Numbered from the stretch's first letter, positions 4,327-19,188 are shown. The stretch is 64,000 nucleotides of DNA from Candidatus Zambryskiibacteriota bacterium (GCA_016180955.1 JACPAD010000001.1:75516-139515); one strand, 5' to 3'. The notes: a model not told the origin generated them from the sequence alone. Numbers and translations: made by a program.

Positions 4327-6102
4327 ATGCTTTCTACTAAATTTGCAAGCAGCTTACGGCATAAGTCTATTCGACGACATGGCCAAAGCGCGATACCGAT
4401 GAAGAAGCCAGCAGACATAATCCCTCCTATTAATGACGCTTTGCGCATCATTCCTCTCGGCGGCGTCGAGGAGATCGGCAAAAATATGACGGTCGTCGAA
4501 TTTAAGGACGACATTATCGTCATTGATGCGGGCATCCAGTTTACCGACGACGATACGCCGGGTATCGACTATATCCTGCCCAACGTCAAATATCTCGAGG
4601 ACCGCAAGGATAAGATCCGCGCCCTCGTCATTACCCACGGCCACTTAGACCACATCGGCGGCATTCCTTATCTCATTACCCGTCTTGGCAACCCGCCAAT
4701 CTACACCCGCGAGTTCGGCGCGCTCCTCATCAGAAAGCGCCAAGCGGAGTTCCCTCATCTTCCTCCGCTCGATATCCGCATCGTGGACAGCGGCGACCAA
4801 TCCATCCCCATCTCGCCAAACTTTAAAGTGCGCTTCTTCGGTCTTACTCACTCCATACCCGACTCAACCGGCATCATCATCGAGACCCCTTACGGCGACA
4901 TCGTCAATACCGGCGATGTCCGCGTCGAGAACGAGAACGGCGTTGTCGCGGAGAAAGAGCTTGAGCAATACAAGATGTTCAAGGACAGGAACATCATTCT
5001 CTTTACCATGGATTCGACCGGCATCGAGAAGCCCGGTTTCTCGCCCTCCGAGGCCTCGATACTTAAAAATATCGACGCTATAGTCAAGGACGCTCCCGGC
5101 CGCATCATCATCGCCACCTTTGCTTCCCAAGTGGAGCGCATTATCGAGTTCTTGAAGAGCGCCCGCCGCTACGGCAGAAAGGTTTTGATCGAAGGTCGCA
5201 GCATGAAGACCAACGTGGAGATTATCAAGCACCTAAACCTCGTCGACACTACCGACATTGTCCCTATCGAAGAGATTGAAAAATATCCGCCCAACAAGAT
5301 TATGATTATCGCCACCGGCGCCCAAGGCGAGGAATTTGCCGCCCTGATGCGCATGTCCAATAAGACCCACAAATACGTGCGGCTGGAGCGTTCCGATACC
5401 ATTGTCTTATCTTCCTCTGTTATCCCGGGCAACGACCGCGCCGTCGAGAAGCTCAAAGATAACCTTTTCCGTCATGACGCCAAGATTATTACCTACCTCG
5501 ACTCCGACGTCCACACCTCGGGACACGGCAAACGGGGCGAACTTGAGTGGATACATAAGCAGATTAATTACAAATACTTCATGCCGGTGCACGGCAGCCA
5601 CTTCCGCCTCAAGATGCACGCCGAACTGGCGGCCTCTCTTGGCTGTCCGCGCGAGAATATTATTGTGCCCGAGAACGGTTCTATCATCGAAATCCGTGAC
5701 GAAGGCCGCCAGTTCTTGAAGCTTACGGAAAAAGCGCCATCGGACGATATGGTTGTCGAAGGGCTTTCCATCGGAGATATCTCCGAAGTAGTCATCCGCG
5801 ACAGGAAGATGCTTGCCGAGGATGGCATCTTTGTCATCATCGCCCTTATCAATACCCGAAACGGCCGTTTGAAGAAGAGTCCGGATATCATCGCCCGCGG
5901 CTTCGTCTACTTGCGCGAATCGCAAGAGCTTTTAAGCGAGGCCAGAGTGATCATCAAGCGCTCCATCGAATCCGCCGCCGCGGGCTCCAACCCCATCAAC
6001 TTCGACCACGTCAAGAACGTGGTAACCGAAGACATTTCCCGCTTCTTATTTCAGAGGACAGCCAAAAAACCCATCGTCATTCCTGTTATCCTCGGTGTCT
6101 AG
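4327..6102 (+). CDS. rnj: Ribonuclease J (metallo-beta-lactamase / beta-CASP RNase); likely start at Met near 4399 (MKKPADII)
   Basis: HxHxDH motif ITHGHLDHIGGIPYL. Beta-CASP region and C-terminal domain colinear with RNase J1/J2. Confidence 0.85.
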   Translation: MLSTKFASSLRHKSIRRHGQSAIPMKKPADIIPPINDALRIIPLGGVEEIGKNMTVVEFKDDIIVIDAGIQFTDDDTPGIDYILPNVKYLEDRKDKIRALVITHGHLDHIGGIPYLITRLGNPPIYTREFGALLIRKRQAEFPHLPPLDIRIVDSGDQSIPISPNFKVRFFGLTHSIPDSTGIIIETPYGDIVNTGDVRVENENGVVAEKELEQYKMFKDRNIILFTMDSTGIEKPGFSPSEASILKNIDAIVKDAPGRIIIATFASQVERIIEFLKSARRYGRKVLIEGRSMKTNVEIIKHLNLVDTTDIVPIEEIEKYPPNKIMIIATGAQGEEFAALMRMSNKTHKYVRLERSDTIVLSSSVIPGNDRAVEKLKDNLFRHDAKIITYLDSDVHTSGHGKRGELEWIHKQINYKYFMPVHGSHFRLKMHAELAASLGCPRENIIVPENGSIIEIRDEGRQFLKLTEKAPSDDMVVEGLSIGDISEVVIRDRKMLAEDGIFVIIALINTRNGRLKKSPDIIARGFVYLRESQELLSEARVIIKRSIESAAAGSNPINFDHVKNVVTEDISRFLFQRTAKKPIVIPVILGV

Positions 6103-8830: not shown

Positions 8831-8901
8831 TGCGGGATCGTCTAATGGTAGGACTGCAGATTCTGGATCTGCGTATCTTGGTTCGAGTCCAAGTCCCGCA
8901 G
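8831..8901 (+). tRNA. tRNA-Gln (anticodon CUG)
   Basis: Cloverleaf read by eye. Acceptor TGCGGGA/TCCCGCA with U1-A72 (Gln hallmark). Anticodon stem GCAGA/TCTGC, loop TTCTGGA. T-arm CTTGG-TTCGAGT-CCAAG. Confidence 0.8.
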
Positions 8902-8996
8902 CCTCTATAAAACTCACCTCATTTTCGGGGAATTTTTGGCGCGCGGCGCGGAGCGCCGAGTATGGAAATAAAGGGGAATCTTCTATACGCCGGTCG
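8897..8996. repeat. Left terminal inverted repeat of tRNA-Gln-adjacent cassette (pairs with 11830-11918; 9-bp indel tataaaact)
   Basis: The reverse complement of 11830-11918 matches 8897-8996 base for base apart from one 9-bp insertion. The repeat starts inside the last 4 nt of the tRNA. Confidence 0.75.
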
Positions 8997-10379
8997 GGTT
9001 CGAGCCGAAGATTTTGGGAGTAGAGATTTTTTGGAGGGGAGGTCGTTCCTTTGAGCGGCTTCAGCTAAGCTTGAAGCCACATTTAGCCATTCCTGCATCG
9101 GTTCGAGCCACGCTTTAGCGTTCCTTTCTAAATTACTTATTTTCTCTTCAAAACTTTTCTTATTAGAGAAAAGTTTTGAGCGCTCTTTGAGATAGGTTTC
9201 TCGGTCTATGTCTTGGGCTATGTAGATATCTAAGAGTCTCTGTATTTTCTCGGAGATAGTAGAAACCCTGTTTCGAAGGTCTTCAATTATTACTGCGCTT
9301 TCTTGCTCGGCCTTCTTTTCATCTTCTTTCATTAACTTTTCAAATTCTTCAGCCCAACGGCTCGGCATAGATGAGCCGTTGAGGATTTCGTTAACCTGTT
9401 CTAACAGCGCTTCTTCTCTTATATGCGGTTCGTTGCAAGGAGTCGTTTTGGACTTCTTCGTGCAATGGTAATAAATATATTTATGGACATTGCCGTTCTT
9501 CTGTCTTTTAACCTTATCCTCTGCCGTTATCATCATCCCGCAAGTAGCACAGCGTAGAAGCCCGCAGAAAGCTTTTGGCTCATTATGTGGCTTCATAGGA
9601 TGGCCTCGCTCAAGGATTACATCTTGGACTTTATCCCAGAGTTTCTTACTAACTATCGGAGGATGCTTACCCTCGTGAATTTCTCCACCATAGAAAAAGT
9701 GGCCATAATAGAATGGATTTGAAAGAATCCACTTAACTCTATCCTTGTGCATTTTCTTTCCGCTTATGGTTCTAACATTTCTCTCGTAAAGAAAATTAGA
9801 AACATCTTCCAGCCGAGCATCGCCGTTTGAATAAAGCTCAAAAGCTTGTTTGAGTATTGGAGCTTTCTTTCTATCCACCACAATAGTTCTTCTCCTTGTA
9901 TCGTTTAAATATCCAGTGGGAGCGGTGCTTGGAAATTCGCCTCGCTTAACCTTTGCCCTTAACCCCCTTTTTACATTAGTACTTAAATCTCTAATAAATT
10001 GGTTGGCCATACCAAACTCCACAGACATCATTAAGACATTGTCTGTGGGGTAGTAACTTCTATCGTGTATAAGCAAGTGCTGAATAATGCCTTGCTGAAG
10101 CATCCAGCTGATCTGTCCGCCGTCTACCGGATTACGGGCAAGGCGATCTAATTTCCAGCACACAATACCTTGCGCCTCGCCCTTTTGAATCTTTTTGACC
10201 ATTTCGTTAAAGACAGGTCTGTCAGGCATTTTAGCCGTGCGCTTTTCCACGAATTCTTCTGTAATAGGCAGACCTTCTTTCTTGGCTAAAGCTCTTAATT
10301 CTGAAAGCTGGGCTTCAATAGAAAGTACTTGTTTGTCTTCGACATCTGTAGATTTTCTAGTGTAGAGAAAGTAATTCAT
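8919..10379 (-). CDS. Large serine recombinase (resolvase/invertase catalytic domain + recombinase domain + zinc ribbon + coiled coil)
   Basis: N-terminus YTRKSTDVEDKQVLSIEAQ (catalytic Ser in the RKST context) ... GIVCWKLDRLARN. Zinc ribbon CGLLRCATCG...YYHC. The C-terminal ~20 codons run into the inverted repeat and may be read-through. Confidence 0.85.
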   Translation of the reverse strand: MNYFLYTRKSTDVEDKQVLSIEAQLSELRALAKKEGLPITEEFVEKRTAKMPDRPVFNEMVKKIQKGEAQGIVCWKLDRLARNPVDGGQISWMLQQGIIQHLLIHDRSYYPTDNVLMMSVEFGMANQFIRDLSTNVKRGLRAKVKRGEFPSTAPTGYLNDTRRRTIVVDRKKAPILKQAFELYSNGDARLEDVSNFLYERNVRTISGKKMHKDRVKWILSNPFYYGHFFYGGEIHEGKHPPIVSKKLWDKVQDVILERGHPMKPHNEPKAFCGLLRCATCGMMITAEDKVKRQKNGNVHKYIYYHCTKKSKTTPCNEPHIREEALLEQVNEILNGSSMPSRWAEEFEKLMKEDEKKAEQESAVIIEDLRNRVSTISEKIQRLLDIYIAQDIDRETYLKERSKLFSNKKSFEEKISNLERNAKAWLEPMQEWLNVASSLAEAAQRNDLPSKKSLLPKSSARTRPAYRRFPFISILGAPRRAPKIPRK

Positions 10380-10387
10380 GGTTAAGT

Positions 10388-10969
10388 TTATCCAACTTGC
10401 CTAGTCCAATCTCGTGCAATACTTTCTATTCGCCCCACCTCAAGTTCTGGTAGCAAGCCTGTATGCATAATTATATTTCGAGATAATTCCAGATCGTTCA
10501 AACGAGAAGAAACCCAATGTTGGTCAGGGAATAAATCAGAAAAATCCTGCCAATTATTTATGATTAGCTGTGATAAATTCGCAAAAGTAGTATAACCAAT
10601 CATCGCTGATGCTCTAGGGGTATGATATTTATTTTTCTCCTCTTTCTCTTTTAAATCAGTTGACGCTTTTTTAATTTTTTCACTCACACAATTAGTTTCC
10701 CACCAACCAGCGCCGTGCCTCTCGCTAAGCCTATCGTCTATGAGCTCCCGAACAGCATTTTCAATACAATAAAACAAGGCATACACCGTGGCCATTCGAC
10801 TAGCCTCATGAATTAAAATCGGACTAAAGTCTGTTTCCTCTATCTTTGCTACAGGGCTTAGTGGAACGCGAATCCCAATTCCTTCATTTTCCAAAGTTTT
10901 CAGGTCCTGTTGAGCAAGAAGGCCATTGAAAACCATCTTTTTAAGACGCGAGACGTGATAATGCTTCAT
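10388..10969 (-). CDS. HEPN-domain protein (Abi/Swt1-like; C-terminal R-x4-H motif)
   Basis: 193 aa, all-helical. C-terminal LELSRNIIMHTG fits the HEPN Rx4-6H nuclease motif. 8 bp upstream of the recombinase gene, same strand. Confidence 0.5.
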   Translation of the reverse strand: MKHYHVSRLKKMVFNGLLAQQDLKTLENEGIGIRVPLSPVAKIEETDFSPILIHEASRMATVYALFYCIENAVRELIDDRLSERHGAGWWETNCVSEKIKKASTDLKEKEEKNKYHTPRASAMIGYTTFANLSQLIINNWQDFSDLFPDQHWVSSRLNDLELSRNIIMHTGLLPELEVGRIESIARDWTRQVG

Positions 10970-11580
10970 TCTCCAAGTAAATTATCCCGAATACTCTTAA
11001 ATATTGCGTTATAAACGCTGATATCGGTAGTAGCTGGTAAGTGAATTTGAATGTTTTGACAGAATTCTATCTGTTTTCCATTCTCAATAGGCAATTTAAG
11101 TGGTAGCATAATATCCTTATCCTTTTTCTCATCAACTGGTTTTTCTTTCACGCGTGGAGAAACACCAAATTTTGCCAAAGCCGCAAGCGTCTTAAATGTT
11201 GCTAAGTATCTGCCAACACTTGCTTCATCCTTGCCCGTTGTACGTGAAATTGCTCCCTTAATTTCACTATCACTTGCTTTTTGGATTTCAGTATTAATAT
11301 TAAATAGATCCCGATATAACTCATTCATTCTTTCCCCAAGAACAAATTGCCAATCCGTCTCATCCTTGAGTCTGTCGTAATATTCTGTAGGCGTTCCCTC
11401 CTCCGTGATAAAACCAAGTCTTTTAAAAAGCGGGATAATGGCTCGGTCATTAGAGCTAGAAAATCCTAAATTTTTTAAAAATTCATGAGTGAATTTAGTA
11501 GGTTTAGCAGCAGTTCTTATTTTTGTAAGAATTGCCTCAATTTTGTTATTAGAAAGCATGTAAGGATATGAATCAGTCAT
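10966..11580 (-). CDS. Hypothetical protein, partner of the HEPN gene (4-nt overlap)
   Basis: 204 aa, no recognisable motif. Translationally coupled to the HEPN gene. Confidence 0.4.
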   Translation of the reverse strand: MTDSYPYMLSNNKIEAILTKIRTAAKPTKFTHEFLKNLGFSSSNDRAIIPLFKRLGFITEEGTPTEYYDRLKDETDWQFVLGERMNELYRDLFNINTEIQKASDSEIKGAISRTTGKDEASVGRYLATFKTLAALAKFGVSPRVKEKPVDEKKDKDIMLPLKLPIENGKQIEFCQNIQIHLPATTDISVYNAIFKSIRDNLLGE

Positions 11581-11678
11581 GATGTTGTATTAAATAAATA
11601 AAAGATTTTGACAGGACGTATTACGAATTACAGAGCAAAGCTACTAAAGTGTAAGATATTTGTGTCAAACTGTAAATC

Positions 11679-11738
11679 AAGGGAGCTTCGCTAATGCGAA
11701 GAACGTGCGCGCGAAAGGGCGGGTGGGTCAAGCGCACA
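11679..11738. ncRNA. Copy 1 of a duplicated ~60-75-nt structured element (aagggag - variable hairpin - gtgcgcgcgaa.ggg.gggtgggtcaag.gcaca); function unknown
   Basis: Direct comparison with 17738-17815. The flanks are conserved and the hairpin sequence differs but keeps its stem structure. Confidence 0.3.
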
Positions 11739-11829
11739 CACGAAACAGAACGACCGACCCGAACCCAAGTATTTAAAAATCTCCCCTCCAAAATCTTCCG
11801 GCTTTGGATTTTCTGAACCCCACCCTCCA

Positions 11830-11918
11830 CGACCGGCGTATAGAAGATTCCCCTTTATTTCCATACTCGGCGCTCCGCGCCGCGCGCCAAAAATTCCCCG
11901 AAAATGAGGTGAGGCTGC
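11830..11918. repeat. Right terminal inverted repeat of the cassette
   Basis: Exact reverse complement of 8897-8996 apart from the 9-bp indel. Confidence 0.75.
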
Positions 11919-12003
11919 TTTGTATGACCCAATCCGAACCTATTTCCAGAAATTATAATGCAGATTAACCTTACCGCCCAGCGCCTTCGGCGCTGGGCTT
12001 GGC

Positions 12004-12082
12004 CTCGCCCCTTTCCGCTATCATACTTTCAATGTTGGCGGTGATAAGACTTTTTTGAATGGAATGAGCGGAAAGGGGCGAG
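12004..12082. other. Long stem-loop: 15-bp perfect stem (tcgcccctttccgct / agcggaaaggggcga) with a ~48-nt loop, preceded by a second hairpin at 11977-11997
   Basis: Read directly. Located downstream of the minus-strand gene ending at 12089. No canonical T-run follows. Confidence 0.4.
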
Positions 12083-12088
12083 AAAATT

Positions 12089-12730
12089 TTAAAACAAAAC
12101 ATTATTGTAAAATCTAAAAGATTTTGCTGGAGATTTAGTTAATCTAAAGCTCCTGACGTAGCTCTTGCCTCTAAAATTTTCCCATTTACCATCCCACTCT
12201 ACTAAAAATAAAAATCTTGTAGGTCTCAGAGCGTTTTTACTGACTATTACTATTTCAAATAAATAATTTCCTACCGGCAAAGCATTTCTAATTGTTCCAC
12301 TGGGATAACCCTCAGCCATAAGATGTAAAATTTCTTCATTGTCACAGATATAACAGACATCTAAGCGCCTAGAGTGTTTTGGTAGAATGTCAATTGGAGC
12401 TATTGATGGTTCGTGTGCCCACTTTAATTTAACAGGCGACCTAAAACTAGCTAATGCATTAAATTTTGAACCTTCTTTTTCCCAAATTTTAGTAATGTAT
12501 GCCTCGGCATTTCGAGAAACTTCAAATCCTCGATTTTTAACCATTAAATGTAGCCATAAGGACTGCGGTTTATTGGGGTGGTCGACAAGAGTAACTTCAT
12601 AATATGTTTCTGAAGGGACAAAAACTACTTTATGCTTAGACTTATAAAGCATCCATTGCAAAAAGGCATAAGGAATTGCAATTAAGGTAAGTAGTGAAGC
12701 TAACCAAGGAATTGTAATATTTTCTTCCAT
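12089..12730 (-). CDS. Membrane-anchored hypothetical protein
   Basis: 213 aa. One N-terminal TM helix, then a soluble domain with no recognised motif. Last gene of a three-gene minus-strand operon. Confidence 0.4.
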   Translation of the reverse strand: MEENITIPWLASLLTLIAIPYAFLQWMLYKSKHKVVFVPSETYYEVTLVDHPNKPQSLWLHLMVKNRGFEVSRNAEAYITKIWEKEGSKFNALASFRSPVKLKWAHEPSIAPIDILPKHSRRLDVCYICDNEEILHLMAEGYPSGTIRNALPVGNYLFEIVIVSKNALRPTRFLFLVEWDGKWENFRGKSYVRSFRLTKSPAKSFRFYNNVLF

Positions 12731-12742
12731 TACTTCAAATTT

Positions 12743-13117
12743 TTATTCTGGTCTACAATAAAATTCCAATCTGTATCCGTTCGGGTCATCAAACCAGATA
12801 AATTCCTTATTTCCATACTTATCAATCTTCACTCCGTTATTATAGATACCAGCTTCATTAAGAACTTTCTCAAAACCTCTTAATTCTTCGGCAGTCCTCA
12901 CTCCAAAAGCCAAATGATTTAGACTACCTTTGTCTTTATCAATCTTTTGGAAGTCTCCATCAGACAACGCAAGGTATATCGTTGATTCTCCTATTTTATA
13001 TGCCATATATTCCTCATCTAAATGGGATGGGCTACCTAAAAAGGCAGTATAGAACTTCTCAGTTTCCTTAAGATCCTTAACTATCAAAACTATGTGGTCT
13101 ATGAATGAGGGTTTCAT
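12743..13117 (-). CDS. VOC-family protein (glyoxalase / bleomycin-resistance / dioxygenase fold)
   Basis: 124 aa. IDHIVLIVKDLKETEKFY...LNHLAFGV...GYRLEFY follows the paired beta-alpha-beta-beta-beta VOC pattern. Confidence 0.65.
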   Translation of the reverse strand: MKPSFIDHIVLIVKDLKETEKFYTAFLGSPSHLDEEYMAYKIGESTIYLALSDGDFQKIDKDKGSLNHLAFGVRTAEELRGFEKVLNEAGIYNNGVKIDKYGNKEFIWFDDPNGYRLEFYCRPE

Positions 13118-13743
13118 TTCAAATTATTTAGCCTATCAAGTATTTGTTTTGTAAATTTTATTCTTTCCGCAGAAATAGAAGTGGTAAAAGAATTCAGCAA
13201 TTCATAAAAATCTTTGTCTTCTAATTTAATAACCCTGATTGCTTCTACGGGAGCTAAAGACCACTTATCTTGAAGTTCAAACCAGGCTCGTATGGCAAAT
13301 TCATAAAATACTCCAGCATAGAAAAATTCCACCATAGGATTATCACAATATTTTTCTATCTTGAGTTTCCAGCTATCTAATTTCTCAAATCGCTCCAAGA
13401 CACCATTTTTATATAGAGTTAGTGGACCTTTACTAAAATCTTCCTCTGTTTTAGTTAAAACTTTAGAGAGCTTACCCTCAGAGTTATCAAGCAGAATTTT
13501 TAACGGCCATAGTGGGCCTGACGGAATAGTTAGCGGTTTATCCTCGTCTGGCCAGTTCTTAAAAGTAATATCCAGACGCTCACCCTCAAAATCTATAAAC
13601 CCGCCATTTCCTTTCTTTGGACCAAGAAGAAATATATCCCAATCACTTCCGCTAGTTTCTTTTCCTTTTGCGCGAGAGCCGGCAAGAAGAATTACTTCTG
13701 GGTCGTGTTCTGTTTTGATGTATTTAATAATCTTGCCTTCCAT
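13114..13743 (-). CDS. Nucleotidyltransferase (Pol-beta superfamily, KNTase/ANT-like) with C-terminal helical domain
   Basis: GSRAKGKETSGSDWDIFLL matches the GS...DxD NTase signature. 4-nt overlap with the VOC gene. Confidence 0.6.
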   Translation of the reverse strand: MEGKIIKYIKTEHDPEVILLAGSRAKGKETSGSDWDIFLLGPKKGNGGFIDFEGERLDITFKNWPDEDKPLTIPSGPLWPLKILLDNSEGKLSKVLTKTEEDFSKGPLTLYKNGVLERFEKLDSWKLKIEKYCDNPMVEFFYAGVFYEFAIRAWFELQDKWSLAPVEAIRVIKLEDKDFYELLNSFTTSISAERIKFTKQILDRLNNLK

Positions 13744-13777
13744 ACTTAAAAATTAACAGAAATTAGACTTTTTAGCT

Positions 13778-13801
13778 AACGGCTCAATGGGTTGAGCCGT
13801 T
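13778..13801. promoter_or_regulatory. 10-bp perfect inverted repeat (aacggctcaa tggg ttgagccgtt) in the divergent promoter region between the NTase operon and the five-gene operon
   Basis: Read directly. Sits ~50 bp upstream of the 13852 start. Confidence 0.35.
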
Positions 13802-13851
13802 GATAAATTAGTAAGTTTCAAAAATGATGATTTTGTGGGATTATCTTATGC

Positions 13852-14535
13852 ATGGGAGGGACTATATACATCCTAATCAACGAGGCAATGCCTGGGTATG
13901 TCAAGATAGGAAAAACGACTAATTCAGTCGAGCAACGAATGCTTGAATTATCGCGCTCATCGGCCGTGCCAATGCCTTTTGAATGTTACTACGCGGCGGT
14001 GGTAAAAGACATGAATCAAGTAGAAAGAGCATTCCATGATGCTTTCGGCGACTACCGAATAAATCCGAAAAGAGAATTTTTTAATGTGGCTCCAGAACGA
14101 GTAGTTGCTATCCTCAAGCTACTCACCTTAAAAGAAGTTACACCTGGTAGAAATACTGGTATTGAGACAAAAGAGGATGCGATTGCTATTGAGATAGCAA
14201 GGAAAAAGCGATCGGCTTTCAATTTTAAAATGGTAGGTATTCCAGCCGGAGCGGAGCTTAAGTTTGTCCGTGATGAAAATATTATATGTATAGTAGCTCC
14301 AGACCAAAAACATGTTGTATTCGATGGTCGAGAGATGTCCTCCTCTGAAGCTGCCGCTTCAGCATTAGGTAGCAAGTGGTGGCCTCAAGGTCCTGGCTAC
14401 TGGACTTATAATGGGGAAACTTTAGATGCCCGTCGTTTGCGTATGGAAGAGGGTGATGAACCTACTCCGGAAGAAATAGAAGCTGCAGGTGACCAATGGC
14501 TATCATTGCAAGCAGATATAGCTAGAGGCAAATAA
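13852..14535 (+). CDS. GIY-YIG family protein (T5orf172-like N-terminal domain) with uncharacterised C-terminal domain
   Basis: GTIYILINEAMPGYVKIGKT supplies the GIY and YIG motifs. Conserved Arg/Glu/Asn follow (RMLEL...FNVAPE). First gene of the operon. Confidence 0.6.
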   Translation: MGGTIYILINEAMPGYVKIGKTTNSVEQRMLELSRSSAVPMPFECYYAAVVKDMNQVERAFHDAFGDYRINPKREFFNVAPERVVAILKLLTLKEVTPGRNTGIETKEDAIAIEIARKKRSAFNFKMVGIPAGAELKFVRDENIICIVAPDQKHVVFDGREMSSSEAAASALGSKWWPQGPGYWTYNGETLDARRLRMEEGDEPTPEEIEAAGDQWLSLQADIARGK

Positions 14536-14539
14536 GTTT

Positions 14540-15682
14540 ATGGCAAACAAAAATCTTACAAATGCGAAACGGGCAAAGAACGACGAGTTTTATACCCAAT
14601 ATGGCGATATCCAAAAGGAAATTCAAGCATATTTGGATTTTAGTCCTAATGTATTTCGAGGCAAGGTAGTCTATTGCAACTGTGATGACCCATTCGAGAG
14701 CAACTTCTTTCGTTATTTTGTGCTTAATTTCAACAAGCTTGGATTAAAACAACTTATTACTACCAGCTACAAACCTTCGCCGATTGCCAATACGGAGCTT
14801 GTATTACAGTCTTCTCTTCTCCCTGGCTATGAAGGTAGTATCGTGAGAAAACCATCAGAATCAAAAGGTCGACCAAAAATAACTGCCAATAAATTTATTA
14901 TTAATGAAGTGCAGGATGTGGACGGCGACGGCGAGTTCAATTTGAAGGATGTTGCTAAGCAGTTAAAGGCAAACAAAAACAACGAATGGATGCCGCTTGA
15001 GAAAGATGGCGATTTCAGAAGTCCCGAGTGCGTAAAATTACTGGAGCAATCTGACATTATAGTGACAAATCCACCCTTTAGTCTATTCCGCGAATATGTT
15101 AAACAACTCTTTGATTACAACAAAAAGTTTGTCATTATCGGCAACATGAATGCAATTATGTATAAGGAAATTTTTCCATTGATGAAGGCCGATAAAATGT
15201 GGCTGGGTAATGGTTTCCATGCCGGAAACGCCTATTTTTCTACCCCTTTTGCCAAAGAATACGGTGAGGGCGTATACAATCCTGAAACAGGTTTGGTAAA
15301 GTTCAGAAATGTTTGTTGGTTTACGAACCTTGATCATGGGCGTCGTCATCAACCATTGCCACTTATGACAATGAGTGAGAATTTAAAATATAGTAAACAT
15401 AAGGAAATCAAAGGTAAAAAATCCTATGATAAATATGACAACTACGACGCAATAGAAGTTTCGTTTACTGACGCTATTCCCAGTGATTATGATGGCGTAA
15501 TGGGTGTGCCAGTTAGTTTTTTAGACAAATATTCACCAGAACAATTTGAAATTATAGGAACTAGCGCCAATGGATTAGTGAGTAATGAATGGAAGTCGCC
15601 ACATTTTAAAAAACATAATAATCCATTTATAGGTAAAAAGCCGATCTTCCAGAGAGTGCTGATAAGACACAGAAAAAAATAA
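14540..15682 (+). CDS. N6-adenine DNA methyltransferase
   Basis: Catalytic NPPF tetrapeptide ([11 protein letters not shown]). N-terminal NDEFYT motif. 4-bp gap after the upstream gene. Confidence 0.75.
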
Positions 15683-15683
15683 T

Positions 15684-16847
15684 ATGAAAACGACTCTAAA
15701 AACTAATATGACTGTCAAAGAAATCTGCGAAGGGTTCGTTTATAACGAACTTGAAGGTAAGGGTTTATTCGGGTTATCTGGCAAGCTTACAATTCAGCCA
15801 GAGTATCAGCGTAACTATATTTATGCAGAAGAAGGAAGGGAGACGGCAGTTATTGATTCAATCCTAAAAGGATATCCACTTGGGTTAATTTACTTCCATA
15901 AGGTTAATGATGATACTTTCGAAGTTTTAGATGGACAGCAACGTATCACCAGTATCGGGCGTTTTGTGAATGAAAAGTTTGCCATTAAAGATGAAAACGG
16001 GATGCAACAAAATTTTAGTGGTATGGCAGAGAACAAGAAAACCAAGATTTGGGAAACGAAATTACTCATTTACGAATGTGAGGGTGAAGAAAGTGAAATA
16101 AAAGATTGGTTTAAAACGATTAATATTGCTGGAATCCCACTTAGGAATCAGGAATTACTCAATGCTGTGTATTCTGGGTCATTCGTGACGTTAGCAAGAG
16201 AGGAATTTAGCAACCGCCAAAATGCGAACATTCAGAAATGGGGCGCATATATATCAGGCAGTGCGAACCGTCAGGATTTCTTAGAGCGAGCACTTGAATG
16301 GGTAAGTAAGGGAAATATTGAGGGCTATATGACGCTTCATCGTCACGATAAAAACATCACTGAGCTAAAGAAATATTTCAACAGCGTGATTGACTGGGTA
16401 TCTAGTGTGTTTACCGATGTAGAAAACGAAATGCGTGGGCTTGAGTGGGGGCGATTATACGAGGAGTATCACAAAAAGGCATATAGTCCGGCAAAAGTAT
16501 CGGCAGATGTGCGTAAGCTCTATGGCGATCCGTATATAAAAAATCGCAAAGGTATTTTTGAATATATTCTTGGCGGTTCAGTTGATACGAAGTTGCTAGA
16601 TGTTCGGATTTTTGATGAAACAATCAAAAGAGCTGTTTATGCAAAACAAACTAGCGAAGCTGAAACTAAAGAGAAATCAAACTGCCCGCATTGTGCTATT
16701 GGACACGATGCTAACAAGAGCAAGATTTGGAGTTTTGGCGAAATGGAAGCAGATCATGTATCCGCTTGGGTTAAAGGTGGTGCGACTTCAGCCAAGAATT
16801 GTCAGATGCTCTGCAAGACACATAATCGAGCAAAGGGTAATCGTTAA
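15684..16847 (+). CDS. DUF262 (ParB/Srx-like, DGQQR motif) fused to a C-terminal HNH endonuclease; GmrSD/SspE-like type IV restriction architecture
   Basis: [15 protein letters not shown] is the DUF262 hallmark. C-terminal CPHCAIGHD...EADHVSAW...[15 protein letters not shown] is a canonical HNH motif. Confidence 0.75.
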
Positions 16848-16871
16848 AGAACTTTAGTGTAAAATTAAATT

Positions 16872-17159
16872 ATGTACTATATATTCACTCTAATTATCGG
16901 TTTTCTACTCGGTTATTTTATTGCTTCTAAAAAGCAGGAGGTCGGCTTCATTTCTAAGCAACAGGAAGAAAAGAAACGGAATAAACAAGCAATTTTTGAG
17001 CTTCTGGAAACTAATCACCCTCTTACCAATAACGATGTGGAAGTAATGCTTGGCATTTCTGACGCCACCGCCACCAGATATTTCGACGAGTTAGAGAAAG
17101 AAGGTAAAGTGCGCCAAGTGGGGAAAACTGGTCGATACGTGAATTACGAAAGAGTTTAA
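16872..17159 (+). CDS. Small membrane-anchored protein with C-terminal wHTH-like domain (paralogous to C-terminus of 17161-17739)
   Basis: 95 aa. N-terminal TM helix. C-terminus LTNNDVEVMLGISDATATRYFDELEKEGKVRQVGKTGRYVNY. Confidence 0.4.
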   Translation: MYYIFTLIIGFLLGYFIASKKQEVGFISKQQEEKKRNKQAIFELLETNHPLTNNDVEVMLGISDATATRYFDELEKEGKVRQVGKTGRYVNYERV

Positions 17160-17160
17160 A

Positions 17161-17739
17161 ATGGCAGAAGAAACTACAACTGAACCTGTAGCAAACGAGT
17201 CGGTTGCCGAACCTGCTCCGGTCCAACCTGAACCGGTAGTAATAACTCCACCCGCATCCGAATCAACTGCAGAACCGGCAGTGGTCGAGGAAACCCCAAC
17301 GCCTCAACCCGCTGAGCCGTTGAATCCAGAGCCGATTTTAGAACCCCCGTTGACTCCTGAACCTGTGCAAGAGCCAGCCATTGAAACTCCACCTATAACC
17401 CATAGTCCCGAGCCTGAATCGGTGTCCCAACCTGAATCTTCCGCTACTTCCGCACCTGTTACCGTTCCCGAACCACAAGTTATCGCCTCTGCTTTTTCAA
17501 TTAGCCGAGCTCACGAACTTCTGATCAAGGCTCGTGAAGCTATACAATTCCGCAAGCGTAAAAAGCTAGAAAAGATTATGAGTATGTTTCTGAAACAAAG
17601 CAGTATCACGAATGATGAAGTGGAGAAACTTTTGCATATCTCTGACGCAACAGCCACACGCTACCTAGACCAACTTGAACGTGAAGGAAAGATTAAGAAA
17701 GGGAATGCTGGAAAGTATCTGTCGTATTCCAGAATGTAA
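17161..17739 (+). CDS. Pro/Glu-rich low-complexity protein with the same C-terminal wHTH-like domain
   Basis: 192 aa. Residues ~10-110 are PEP/TPE repeats. C-terminus ITNDEVEKLLHISDATATRYLDQLEREGKIKKGNAGKYLSY. 1-bp gap from the previous gene. Confidence 0.4.
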   Translation: MAEETTTEPVANESVAEPAPVQPEPVVITPPASESTAEPAVVEETPTPQPAEPLNPEPILEPPLTPEPVQEPAIETPPITHSPEPESVSQPESSATSAPVTVPEPQVIASAFSISRAHELLIKAREAIQFRKRKKLEKIMSMFLKQSSITNDEVEKLLHISDATATRYLDQLEREGKIKKGNAGKYLSYSRM

Positions 17740-17815
17740 GGGAGTATCTGCCGTATCCTCTCTGACCTACGGCAGATGGTGCGCGCGAACGGGAGGGTGG
17801 GTCAAGTGCACATGG
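17738..17815. ncRNA. Copy 2 of the duplicated structured element, starting at the stop codon of the 17161-17739 gene
   Basis: Flanks are conserved with copy 1 (35 aligned positions, 4 mismatches). The hairpin has a different sequence but the same structure. Confidence 0.3.
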
Positions 17816-18117
17816 ATTTTGAGGCCTCGGGCATTTCCGCGACGGGCGTCCTGGCCAACGGGTGAGCATCGCCGCTAAACGAAGGTACTGACTAACGAAA
17901 CTTGCCACTAAACGCAGTAATGAAAACGAGGAAGGGGGTTGTGCAACGACGGAATCCGAAGGAACGAGGATGAGGAGGAGCTGGGGGAAGGATTCCTTCC
18001 TTTCCAACCTCTGGTTTAGTTTCTGATTTTATTGTTATGTAAAAATTAACAGAATCACTATTTTTTGCCAGAAACTTACCATCCATTATAATTTTCCTAT
18101 AGGATTGTTATGAAAAG

Positions 18118-18146
18118 GCCCCGCTCCGACTTCGGTCGGAGCGGGG
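18118..18146. terminator. Bidirectional hairpin ccccgctccgac ttcg gtcggagcgggg, terminator of the minus-strand phosphoesterase gene
   Basis: Perfect 12-bp stem. On the minus strand it is followed by ttttcat. Same hairpin family as 27187-27212. Confidence 0.55.
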
Positions 18147-18153
18147 CCATGCA

Positions 18154-19188
18154 TTACTCAACTTGCGGTTCGATGTAACCGCCGGGGTTATCGTGACACA
18201 CCGTAATACCGGACGGCCACTCTTTCCTCTGCGCGCGTCGCGATGGTACGGGCAAGAATTCCCACTGAAGCTTCCCCGGCCAGAGGTCAATTTGAACGAC
18301 ACCCGGAGTATTCGTGACAACTTCTTCCCCTTCCCTTGCCCACTTGCGTTTCCCTTGCTCTGGATAGTGAGGAACGGCTCCGCCGGCGCCGGCGATGATG
18401 CCTTCGATACCGTAGACACTATCTACTCTCGGCGACCTTCCGTCGATTGGAAAGAGCGAGGGCAGCTTAGCAAACATATGTTCGTGGCCGACAAGATAGA
18501 AGTCCACGCCGTACTTAATGGACTTCCTGAATAACGGCCCAACCCATGACGGACTGGCGAATCGACCCGACGAAAACATCGGCCGGTGATACGCTGTCAG
18601 CACGCACTGGCGTTTGTAACGTTCCCGCAGTTCCCACTCCATCCAGTCCAGCTGTAATTTTGCCAGCGGATTGTTAAGCTTGCCGCCAGTAGTGCTCATC
18701 ACCTCGCTATTCAAGAGCATTACACTCCAGCCACCCCAGTCGAAGACCTGCCAGCCCTTCCCGCGCACACCGTGGTTAAAGGTGTAGTTGAAGAAGAATG
18801 GCACGCCTCCTACGGCCCGTACGCCATCATAGTCGTGATTACCCGGCAGGGAGTAGGCGACGCGTAGGATGGAACCGCAAGAGGTTCTCTCGAGACGTTC
18901 GTACGCTTCGGGAGTGCCTGCACTGCCATCATTGTCGTTAGAGATGTCTCCCAAGAGAAGCACGCGGGCCTGCGGATTCTCTTCCAACAGCCGCACCAGC
19001 ATCCGACAGACTTCTTCGGTATCAGGAGACTTACTGTCCAAATCCCCCACCGCGTAGAGCCGCGCGGGCAGTATCTGGGCCTGACCTAAAGCCGGCAGCA
19101 AAACGAAGAGAGCCAGAAGCAGTATTCTCATATCGCCTCCAGTGAACGATTCTCTTTGTATTAGATACCCACGTCTTAAATTAAGCAA
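18154..19188 (-). CDS. Secreted metallophosphoesterase (calcineurin-like)
   Basis: Signal peptide MRILLLALFVLLPALGQAQ. Motifs GDLD...GDISNDNDG...GNHDY. Confidence 0.7.
   Translation of the reverse strand: MLNLRRGYLIQRESFTGGDMRILLLALFVLLPALGQAQILPARLYAVGDLDSKSPDTEEVCRMLVRLLEENPQARVLLLGDISNDNDGSAGTPEAYERLERTSCGSILRVAYSLPGNHDYDGVRAVGGVPFFFNYTFNHGVRGKGWQVFDWGGWSVMLLNSEVMSTTGGKLNNPLAKLQLDWMEWELRERYKRQCVLTAYHRPMFSSGRFASPSWVGPLFRKSIKYGVDFYLVGHEHMFAKLPSLFPIDGRSPRVDSVYGIEGIIAGAGGAVPHYPEQGKRKWAREGEEVVTNTPGVVQIDLWPGKLQWEFLPVPSRRAQRKEWPSGITVCHDNPGGYIEPQVE

Follow-up and report, generated by a model that had tools for sequence, protein, structure and literature searches.

A membrane-anchored winged-helix protein, its tandem paralogue and a linked palindrome in Patescibacteria: a candidate protein-site pairing

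Noc with its Noc-binding sites (NBS), ParB with parS and MatP with matS are chromosome organisers with dispersed palindromic sites; a parS site lies in spo0J, and Noc binds DNA at tens of scattered palindromic sites and has a membrane-targeting element at its N-terminus. Winged helices held at the membrane are known from ToxR, CadC and TcpP, integral membrane proteins that bind DNA at the membrane through a cytoplasmic winged helix, such tethering of DNA being part of the mechanism (PMC10629549, PMC5430869). Here we describe two adjacent open reading frames, ORF-A and ORF-B, in a stretch of 64,000 nucleotides from a Candidatus Zambryskiibacteriota bacterium (GCA_016180955.1, JACPAD010000001.1:75516-139515; hereafter the window), and a palindrome, P, that is linked to nearly all members of their family. 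Their products, A and B, appear to be chromosomal members of a Patescibacteria-specific superfamily of minimal winged-helix proteins predicted to bind nucleic acids, an account to which, taken as a whole, we give an even chance. Coordinates in the window are as follows.

16872-17159, + strand: ORF-A, 95-aa N-terminally membrane-anchored winged helix-turn-helix (wHTH) protein; transmembrane (TM) helix with GxxxG at residues 2-20, helical stalk to residue 47, wHTH at residues 48-95
17161-17739, + strand: ORF-B, 192-aa tandem paralogue of A; acidic Pro/Glu-rich disordered residues 1-111, basic helix 112-145, wHTH 146-192
13778-13801, no strand assigned: P, perfect palindrome AACGGCTCAA-TGGG-TTGAGCCGTT, between divergent nucleotidyltransferase (NTase) and T5orf172 genes
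17298-17321, no strand assigned: P1, degenerate copy of P (2 changes) in the ORF-B coding sequence, AACGCCTCAACCCGCTGAGCCGTT = PTPQPAEPL

A and B fall under the definition of none of the systems compared, and we rate them a variant among membrane-tethered winged-helix nucleic-acid-binding proteins. By architecture they resemble ToxR-like regulators, A likewise being a membrane protein with a predicted cytoplasmic winged helix. However, in ToxR-like proteins an OmpR-type wHTH at the N-terminus is followed by a central TM segment and a periplasmic sensor, whereas A is reversed, with the TM helix first and a MarR/DeoR-like wHTH last, and carries no sensor; with its TM segment at residues 2-20 and no match to Pfam Trans_reg_C, A does not classify as a ToxR-like regulator. 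By genome logic the likeness is to ParB-parS, Noc-NBS and the repetitive extragenic palindromes (REP) with their REP-associated tyrosine transposases (RAYT). Like A/B and P, for which binding is a prediction, the Noc and ParB systems combine dispersed palindromes with a copy in or beside the protein's own gene, but they use a ParB/CTPase fold, an amphipathic helix and fixed-length sites, where A has a wHTH and a true TM helix and P a variable self-complementary centre. REP elements are dispersed inverted repeats at gene 3' ends with a copy flanking the gene of the presumed recogniser, as P and A/B are; unlike RAYT, A and B have no catalytic domain. The literature searched on membrane-anchored winged helices in Patescibacteria and on palindromic terminators in Parcubacteria held nothing on the A/B family or P.

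Two paralogues sharing a winged-helix domain

The stop codon TAA of ORF-A at 17157-17159 is followed by one base and then by the ATG of ORF-B at 17161. The original prediction, made from the sequence of the window, had noted this 1-bp gap and taken the two C-termini for homologous, and both observations were confirmed: in BLASTP 25 of the last 45 residues were identical (56%, E=9e-18), and gaps of -1, 0 or +1 nt recurred in 8 distinct loci of a Zambryskibacteria-like group, the gap being 47 nt in L031, L034 and L035. Such a tight junction is compatible with translational coupling of A and B. In profile and family alignments the homology extended to about 60-70 residues and took in the basic helix preceding the wHTH (KKRNKQAIFELL in A, RKRKKLEKIMSMF in B).

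Both proteins passed the gathering threshold of Pfam HTH_24 (PF13412; 21.9 bits), A with 23.5 and B with 25.5 bits. Structure prediction of both, which had been proposed as a check, revealed the same wHTH in the two AlphaFold2 models. In that of A (predicted local distance difference test score, pLDDT, 85.5) a single unbroken helix of residues 2-47 is followed by two helices (53-60 and 64-76) and a wing (strands 80-86 and 89-94), these elements having pLDDT >90. In that of B, residues 1-111 are without secondary structure (pLDDT 40-64), and helix 112-145 leads into the wHTH (helices 151-158 and 163-175, strands 178-183 and 186-191). The order of elements that defines the fold, H1-(strand)-H2-H3 plus a beta-hairpin wing, is present in A and B alike, and the best Foldseek neighbours of the A model were the winged helices of MarR, ArsR, Zalpha and S25e. 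Pfam, models and Foldseek matches thus agree with the original assignment of the shared domain to the wHTH class.

Residues 2-20 of A are hydrophobic (Kyte-Doolittle 1.86 over 19 residues), and a TM segment beginning at residue 2-3 was present in 108 of 120 A homologues. Around this segment Lys and Arg count 0.21 on the N-terminal versus 3.99 on the C-terminal side in the A family, so that by the positive-inside rule A should be oriented N-out/C-in with its wHTH in the cytoplasm. Only 1-2 residues of A then lie outside the membrane and neither protein has a sensor domain, which does not support the earlier idea of a sensor. The GxxxG pattern, the classic TM dimerisation motif of glycophorin-A type homodimers, occurred in 106 of 127 A-family TM segments against 25 expected from shuffles, and G10 and G14 were nearly invariant in the family alignment; A may therefore dimerise through GxxxG. 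In B the first 110 residues carry a net charge of -20, and across 120 homologues the disordered region contains on average 21% Pro, 19.5% Asp+Glu and 3.6% Lys+Arg. Composition, topology signal and models are in good agreement with the described contrast between a TM-anchored copy and one with a Pro/Glu-rich disordered tract. In the explanation we favour, B is a tandem paralogue specific to its lineage, with some 110 acidic, Pro/Glu-rich disordered residues in place of the membrane anchor.

The closest sequence match of the domain was to residues 271-353 of SoFic (PADLOC; E=1.7e-6 and 4.7e-6), followed by the DeoR-family protein UlaR (E=1.6e-5; 24 bits for NCBIfam UlaR against a cut-off of 244), and A and B came near no NCBIfam family cut-off. 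The nearest sequence relatives, far below family cut-offs, are thus the wHTH at the C-terminus of Fic proteins and the HTH at the N-terminus of DeoR proteins (UlaR, FucR); these proteins, however, carry a Fic or DeoRC domain, whereas in A and B the wHTH is accompanied by nothing but an anchor or a disordered tail. Membership of the DeoR family was rejected (HTH_DeoR 16.4 and 18.3 bits against a threshold of 21; no DeoRC domain), and so was that of the MarR family (17.2 and 19.1 bits against 24.6). MarR regulators have about 140 residues, with N- and C-terminal helices forming a dimer interface around the wHTH; A and B end at the wing, without the following helix. PapI and FaeA are very small single-wHTH proteins as well, and B passes the Pfam FaeA threshold of 20.7 bits (23.8) where A fails it (19.9), HTH_24 scoring higher for both; but PapI and FaeA act with Lrp at GATC sites of fimbrial operons of Proteobacteria and have neither an anchor nor a disordered region. 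Two longer proteins with 8-11 tandem related small wHTH modules and basic linkers between them (P0243, 581 aa; P0244, 818 aa) were rejected as family members, their recognition helices being different.

Database entries identical to A and B come from a metagenome-assembled genome of Candidatus Zambryskibacteria. A profile search with A covered 1.84 billion proteins in clusters of 50% identity and returned, at E<=1e-10, 1,414 cluster representatives, nearly all 95-130 residues long and matched end to end. Relatives occur in 80 species-level genomes assigned to Zambryski-, Harrison-, Wolfe-, Staskawicz-, Portnoy-, Doudna- and Tagabacteria, Kazan, Berkelbacteria and others, labels that span Paceibacteria and other groups of Patescibacteria; in IMG/VR viral contigs no relative of A was found. 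B adjoins A in only about 10 of 79 distinct A-family loci, and the remaining A genes stand alone, with various housekeeping genes as neighbours. More distant homologues of B are found near prfB-ftsEX with no A gene; in the window ftsX and ftsE follow A-B at a distance of 1.8 kb.

The palindrome P and its linkage to the A and B genes

P consists of the arms ACGGCTCA and TGAGCCGT around a variable centre, and no copy is expected by chance in the window. Near A and B genes it was searched for as ACGGCTCA-N2-30-TGAGCCGT with at most one mismatch per arm, and in this form it was found within -300 to +400 nt of the gene in 68 of 79 distinct A-family loci. At 54 of 67 stand-alone A genes P falls in the interval -25 to +75 nt around the stop codon, with frequent overlap of the TAA, where about 0.5 would be expected by chance; the background in the same loci is 0.72 per 10 kb, or about one copy per 15 kb. 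All 7 distinct pair loci carry P 105-170 nt into ORF-B. In L031, L034 and L035 it lies in the 47-nt spacer between A and B, and 4 loci have an extra copy 36-91 nt upstream of A. The palindrome at 13778-13801, singled out by the original prediction as a site whose binding should be tested, was therefore worth following, the same palindrome being linked to nearly all A/B family members.

Read in the frame of B, P encodes Thr-Ala-Gln ... Glu-Pro-Leu, and TAQ..EP[LF], present in 107 of 120 B homologues, is the sole conserved island of an otherwise hypervariable disordered region. In relatives of the window P1 is perfect (AACGGCTCAACCCGTTGAGCCGTT). The arms of P inside B are identical at synonymous positions in 6 loci while the flanks diverge, and P was confirmed at the DNA level in distant B-only loci. 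Together with the retained island, this points to selection on the nucleotides of P inside B. Judging from the peptide variants, the residue before Glu (V, N, S, I, A or D) is always encodable by a codon ending in T, as the arm needs.

The copy at 13778 lies between two divergent start codons, and the first hexamer of a promoter-like site, TTGATA-17-AATGAT (13800-13828), shares bases with its right end. P is conserved together with the next 43 nt on its right in L001 and L009, where other genes follow.

Protein and site also vary together. The recognition helix, (I/V)SDATATRY(F/L)DELEKEG, hardly varies among the loci that have canonical P. Four loci, L053, L078, L080 and L075, have a changed helix (STATAVRY, SSRTAVRY twice, SSASVRRY), and there P is either missing or altered (ACCGCTCA..TGAGCTGT). 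A wing of its own, GG(Y/F)VYY, goes with the symmetric ATGGCTCA..TGAGCCAT arms of 4 loci. These correlations fit direct recognition, with the wing contacting the outer base pairs.

On this basis we propose that A and B recognise P for autoregulation and at dispersed targets, with A holding the bound nucleic acid at the membrane, a prediction from sequence that we consider about as probable as the alternatives to it taken together. Each gene carries P in cis, either just past the stop codon of A or within the part of B that encodes the disordered region. Dimers of A (through GxxxG), dimers of B, or A-B heterodimers (through the shared basic helix) would recognise both arms. A membrane-anchored A dimer offering two wHTH domains to the two arms appears to be the most economical model. 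The copy beside a protein's own gene would then mediate autoregulation of A/B, and P overlapping the -35 region at 13800 would place the transcription unit composed of the cargo, A and B under the same control. The dispersed copies, most of them at gene 3' ends and some 15 kb apart on average, would be further targets held at the membrane by A. B may act as a soluble competitor or partner, its acidic tail tuning binding.

Three further observations concern P itself. A P-like site lies in the window within a recombinase gene:

9357-9379, no strand assigned: P-like site ACGGCTCGGCATAGATGAGCCGT, inside the serine recombinase gene; encodes NGSSMPSR on the - strand

In L077 a perfect P at 799-822 lies in the homologous serine recombinase gene and encodes TAQCAEP. 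The sequence preceding P at 13748-13777 (AAAAATTAACAGAA...TTTTT.GC) recurs at 18039-18068, beyond the non-coding element that follows B, with P itself missing. Since L001 and L207-209 carry a copy (P2) at that position, 18039-18068 is probably the remnant of a lost P2.

Recognition by A and B weighed against a general hairpin element

Several observations weigh against recognition of P by A and B. The main difficulty for a duplex operator is the centre of P: the arms are 2 to 30 nt apart and enclose a self-complementary stretch (82% Watson-Crick), and complementary bases often lengthen the stem on both sides. Such a site is easier to reconcile with a hairpin or cruciform than with a fixed dimer on B-form DNA, and it leaves room for a hairpin, cruciform or RNA target. 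The co-variation of helix and site is confounded by shared ancestry. The copy in ORF-B of the window is degenerate and folds at -10 kcal/mol, compared with -21 kcal/mol in L001, and in a promoter consensus scan the counts did not exceed shuffled expectation. A scan of metagenome contigs for the exact form of P with a 4-nt loop gave at least 120 loci. Among the matches listed, about 90% of the copies are not next to an A/B gene, the flanking gene pairs are convergent in 27, tandem in 35 and divergent in 5 cases, and the neighbours are unrelated housekeeping genes such as recA, efp, rplT, tpiA and pgk. P thus has the look of a terminator or REP-like element as well, and something other than A/B could recognise it. 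On the other side, the roughly 10 in 120 listed loci with an A-type gene beside P are what is expected if a genome has at least 10 copies of P and one A gene, and the wHTH family was the only recurrent one among the listed genes ending at P.

The alternative that survives best takes these points at face value: P would be a general terminator or REP-like hairpin of Patescibacteria, recognised by a factor other than A/B or by nothing, and A and B would be ordinary small transcription factors. The position of P mainly at gene 3' ends, the excess of convergent over divergent pairs, the diversity of neighbours, the extended stems with folding energies of -16 to -32 kcal/mol, and the A-tract and T-tract flanks, which resemble those of bidirectional terminators on some copies and are absent on many, are all as this explanation would have it. 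It does not account for the approximately 100-fold enrichment of P at the ends of A genes, for its retention in the reading frame of B, where a terminator would be harmful, for a copy at a promoter between divergent genes, or for loss and change of P that track changes in the recognition helix. Conservation at the stem base exceeds that of adjacent coding sequence, which is unexpected for ordinary terminators. On the sense strand of P, G-U and A-C pairs were equally frequent (inner 10 versus 9, outer 48 versus 38), so no strand-specific RNA function is indicated and an excess of G-U is missing, although this test does not tell an RNA from a DNA function. We consider the general hairpin element unlikely, if the most serious competitor.

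Other identities for P were rejected. Its density is about 20 times lower than that of DNA uptake sequences (DUS) and uptake signal sequences (USS); the half-site is sparse in the window (6 octamers, 4 of them inside palindromes) and not over-represented outside palindromes, and the wHTH of A is predicted to be cytoplasmic, not at the surface. DUS and USS themselves commonly form terminator hairpins (PMC1852404). P1 and P2 are neither terminal inverted repeats nor a dif-like 11-6-11 site, as their 12-nt centres are near-palindromic (ATAC-YR-GTAT; L207-209, L001), and these copies are of the same extended-hairpin type as the others. No Rfam covariance model reached its gathering threshold on P or on the non-coding element following B.

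Element N, the upstream cargo and the putative island

A conserved element, N, follows ORF-B directly, and copies are found in relatives.

17740-17971, + strand: N, conserved non-coding element directly downstream of ORF-B; candidate structured RNA or 3' untranslated region of B
L001, 10976-11212: copy of N
L005, 2187-2430: copy of N
L207, 6717-6921: copy of N
L208, 6681-6886: copy of N
L209, 6634-6844: copy of N
L049, 6660-6851: copy of N
L056, 5615-5807: copy of N

N measures about 200-240 nt and was present after B in 13 loci, among them L207-209, L049 and L056, which are distant and have B only. Its invariant blocks are GGGTGGGGCAAG, CCGCTAGGGCG, TAGCGAAAGCGACAC and GGGGTTGTGCGAGGGCGGACTCCGAAGG, and in L001 and L207-209 a copy of P comes after it. 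The first helix shows several compensatory changes, overall covariation support in RNAalifold being weak. At gathering thresholds Rfam matched only tRNAs in the whole window, and permissive scans of 17700-18200, 11560-12120 and L005 2150-3050 gave only chance matches to miRNA and small RNA models. In a consensus scan terminator counts did not exceed shuffled expectation, and no terminator-like site was seen between B and N on the + strand.

Two side observations belong here. Positions 11700-11738 and 17774-17812 form a 39-nt direct repeat of 87% identity that corresponds to the first hairpin of N (GTGCGCGCGAA.GGG.GGGTGGGTCAAG.GCACA), so that 11700-11738 is a partial second copy of N, beside the right arm of the 84-nt inverted repeat described below. 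Further downstream, an intrinsic-terminator-like hairpin at 18117-18148 (- strand; 14 bp, 12 of them G-C, then TTTT) follows the metallophosphoesterase gene (18154-19188, - strand) and is the only convincing canonical terminator in 13600-18250.

N bears on the possibility that A and B act on RNA, binding the P hairpin in transcripts, with B binding N, in a ribonucleoprotein or a membrane-localised complex at mRNA 3' ends. The variable spacer with its complementary centre would imply that the hairpin is the selected form, N follows B flanked by P1 and P2 and its first helix covaries, and S25e and Zalpha among the Foldseek matches are RNA-contacting winged helices. Yet the wobble pairs in P lack strand asymmetry, the closest sequence relatives are DNA-binding wHTH domains of the DeoR/Fic type, and the weak covariation term of N as a whole lends little help. 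We hold an RNA target to be improbable.

Upstream of A-B lies a set of genes that differs among relatives.

13852-16847, + strand: variable defence cargo upstream of A-B, not part of the A-B unit
13852-14535, + strand: T5orf172 / PDC-S57 (PADLOC)
14540-15682, + strand: EcoRI-like type II methyltransferase (PADLOC type II methyltransferase)
15684-16847, + strand: GmrSD_N+HNH type II restriction endonuclease-like protein (PADLOC type II restriction endonuclease)
L001 and L007, same slot (A 95% identical): 826-aa protein and AAA_15/AAA_21 ATPase
L009, same slot: Mrr_cat_2-ResIII helicase (type IIG-like)
L004-6, same slot: small ORFs
L077, upstream of A-B: zinc-ribbon proteins
L008, same slot: empty; a histidine phosphatase gene abuts A

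DNA similarity between the window and L001 ends 8 nt before the start of T5orf172 (13844) and resumes 1 nt before the start of A (16871); the cargo has therefore been exchanged precisely between the conserved upstream module and A. The exchange hotspot corresponds to 13852-16847 in the window, 6343-9969 in L001, 2973-5846 in L009 and 5991-6001, the empty slot, in L008. A-B-N in turn is syntenic with core genes (rbfA-infB, prfB-ftsEX) in relatives. A-B is thus a core-genome feature bordering a defence-gene exchange hotspot. The proposal that A and B regulate the upstream nuclease and methyltransferase genes, or act as a decoy for them, was not upheld, as this cargo is replaced in L001, L007, L009 and L004-6 and absent from L008; nor are A-B and the upstream operon conserved together, which had been named as a test, A-B staying in place as the cargo changes.

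A controller, sensor or decoy dedicated to the T5orf172, methyltransferase and GmrSD-HNH genes, comparable to the C-protein of a restriction-modification (R-M) system, is therefore largely refuted, and we regard it as very improbable. It would agree with the common strand and the 24 nt separating cargo and A, with the overlap of P and the promoter-like site upstream of the cargo operon, and with the defence genes that fill the same slot in several relatives. But the exchange between the P-promoter module and the start codon of A in L001 and L009 and the empty slot in L008 speak against it, some 85% of the A genes of other genomes lack a neighbouring defence gene, and C-proteins have an Xre-type HTH encoded upstream of the nuclease gene, whereas A and B are wHTH proteins encoded downstream. 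Two related identities were rejected: an R-M C-protein, since the fold is wHTH and not HTH_3 and the cargo genes differ or are absent in relatives, and an AbiEi antitoxin, with AbiEi_4 at 16.2 bits against 25 and the NTase gene (13114-13743) lying at 3 kb on the opposite strand and missing from most loci.

Farther upstream, the region from tRNA-Gln (8831-8903) to A has a lower G+C content and looks like a composite island with a large serine recombinase, the candidate defence pair PDC-M34A/B and R-M cargo. An 84-nt inverted repeat, 100% identical between its arms at 8913-8996 and 11830-11913, adjoins tRNA-Gln and brackets the genes for the serine recombinase (whose last 26 codons lie in the left arm), HEPN_Swt1 and DUF5343; it is either the border of an invertible segment or an assembly artefact of the metagenome-assembled genome. 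The DUF5343 and Swt1-like HEPN genes at 10388-11580 match PDC-M34A and PDC-M34B of PADLOC (E=6e-67 and E=3e-65). At 12004-12082 a long hairpin with a 16-bp perfect stem, CTCGCCCCTTTCCGCT...AGCGGAAAGGGGCGAG, has copies of 90-96% identity downstream of A-B-N in L001 and L004-6, in the opposite orientation, and the region has therefore undergone inversions or rearrangements relative to those genomes. In L004, L009 and L077 a copy of P stands immediately after a hairpin of this type. That A and B are accessory or directionality factors of an integrative island with the serine recombinase (8919-10379), P being its recombination site, is the least probable explanation, for although the window, L077 and L208 each have such a recombinase a few kb upstream of A/B or B, P-like sites occur inside recombinase genes and variable modules are bracketed by P copies, most A loci have no recombinase nearby, A-B-N keeps its synteny with core genes, the cargo breakpoints are at the start codon of A and not at P, and viral contigs gave no matches.

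Implications for Patescibacteria

Patescibacteria, or the candidate phyla radiation (CPR), make up a large share of bacterial diversity and have tiny genomes with few recognisable regulators and almost no experimental characterisation. The membrane-tethered wHTH family of about 1,400 clusters and its cis-linked palindrome offer a directly testable pairing of a protein with a candidate site, and if binding is confirmed this would be among the first regulon or chromosome-organisation systems defined for the group. P within B is, in addition, a nucleic-acid element that constrains the sequence of an intrinsically disordered region. A bolder scheme, to which we give only a small chance, would make of these parts a two-part system of a dispersed hairpin P, found chiefly at gene 3' ends and in some cases at promoters or within coding sequence, and dedicated wHTH readers, in which A, dimerised through GxxxG, pins loci or nascent transcripts to the membrane and the soluble, acidic-tailed B works with N. 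If true, the tiny cells of Patescibacteria would have a new way of organising the nucleoid at the membrane, or of terminating transcription with the help of proteins.

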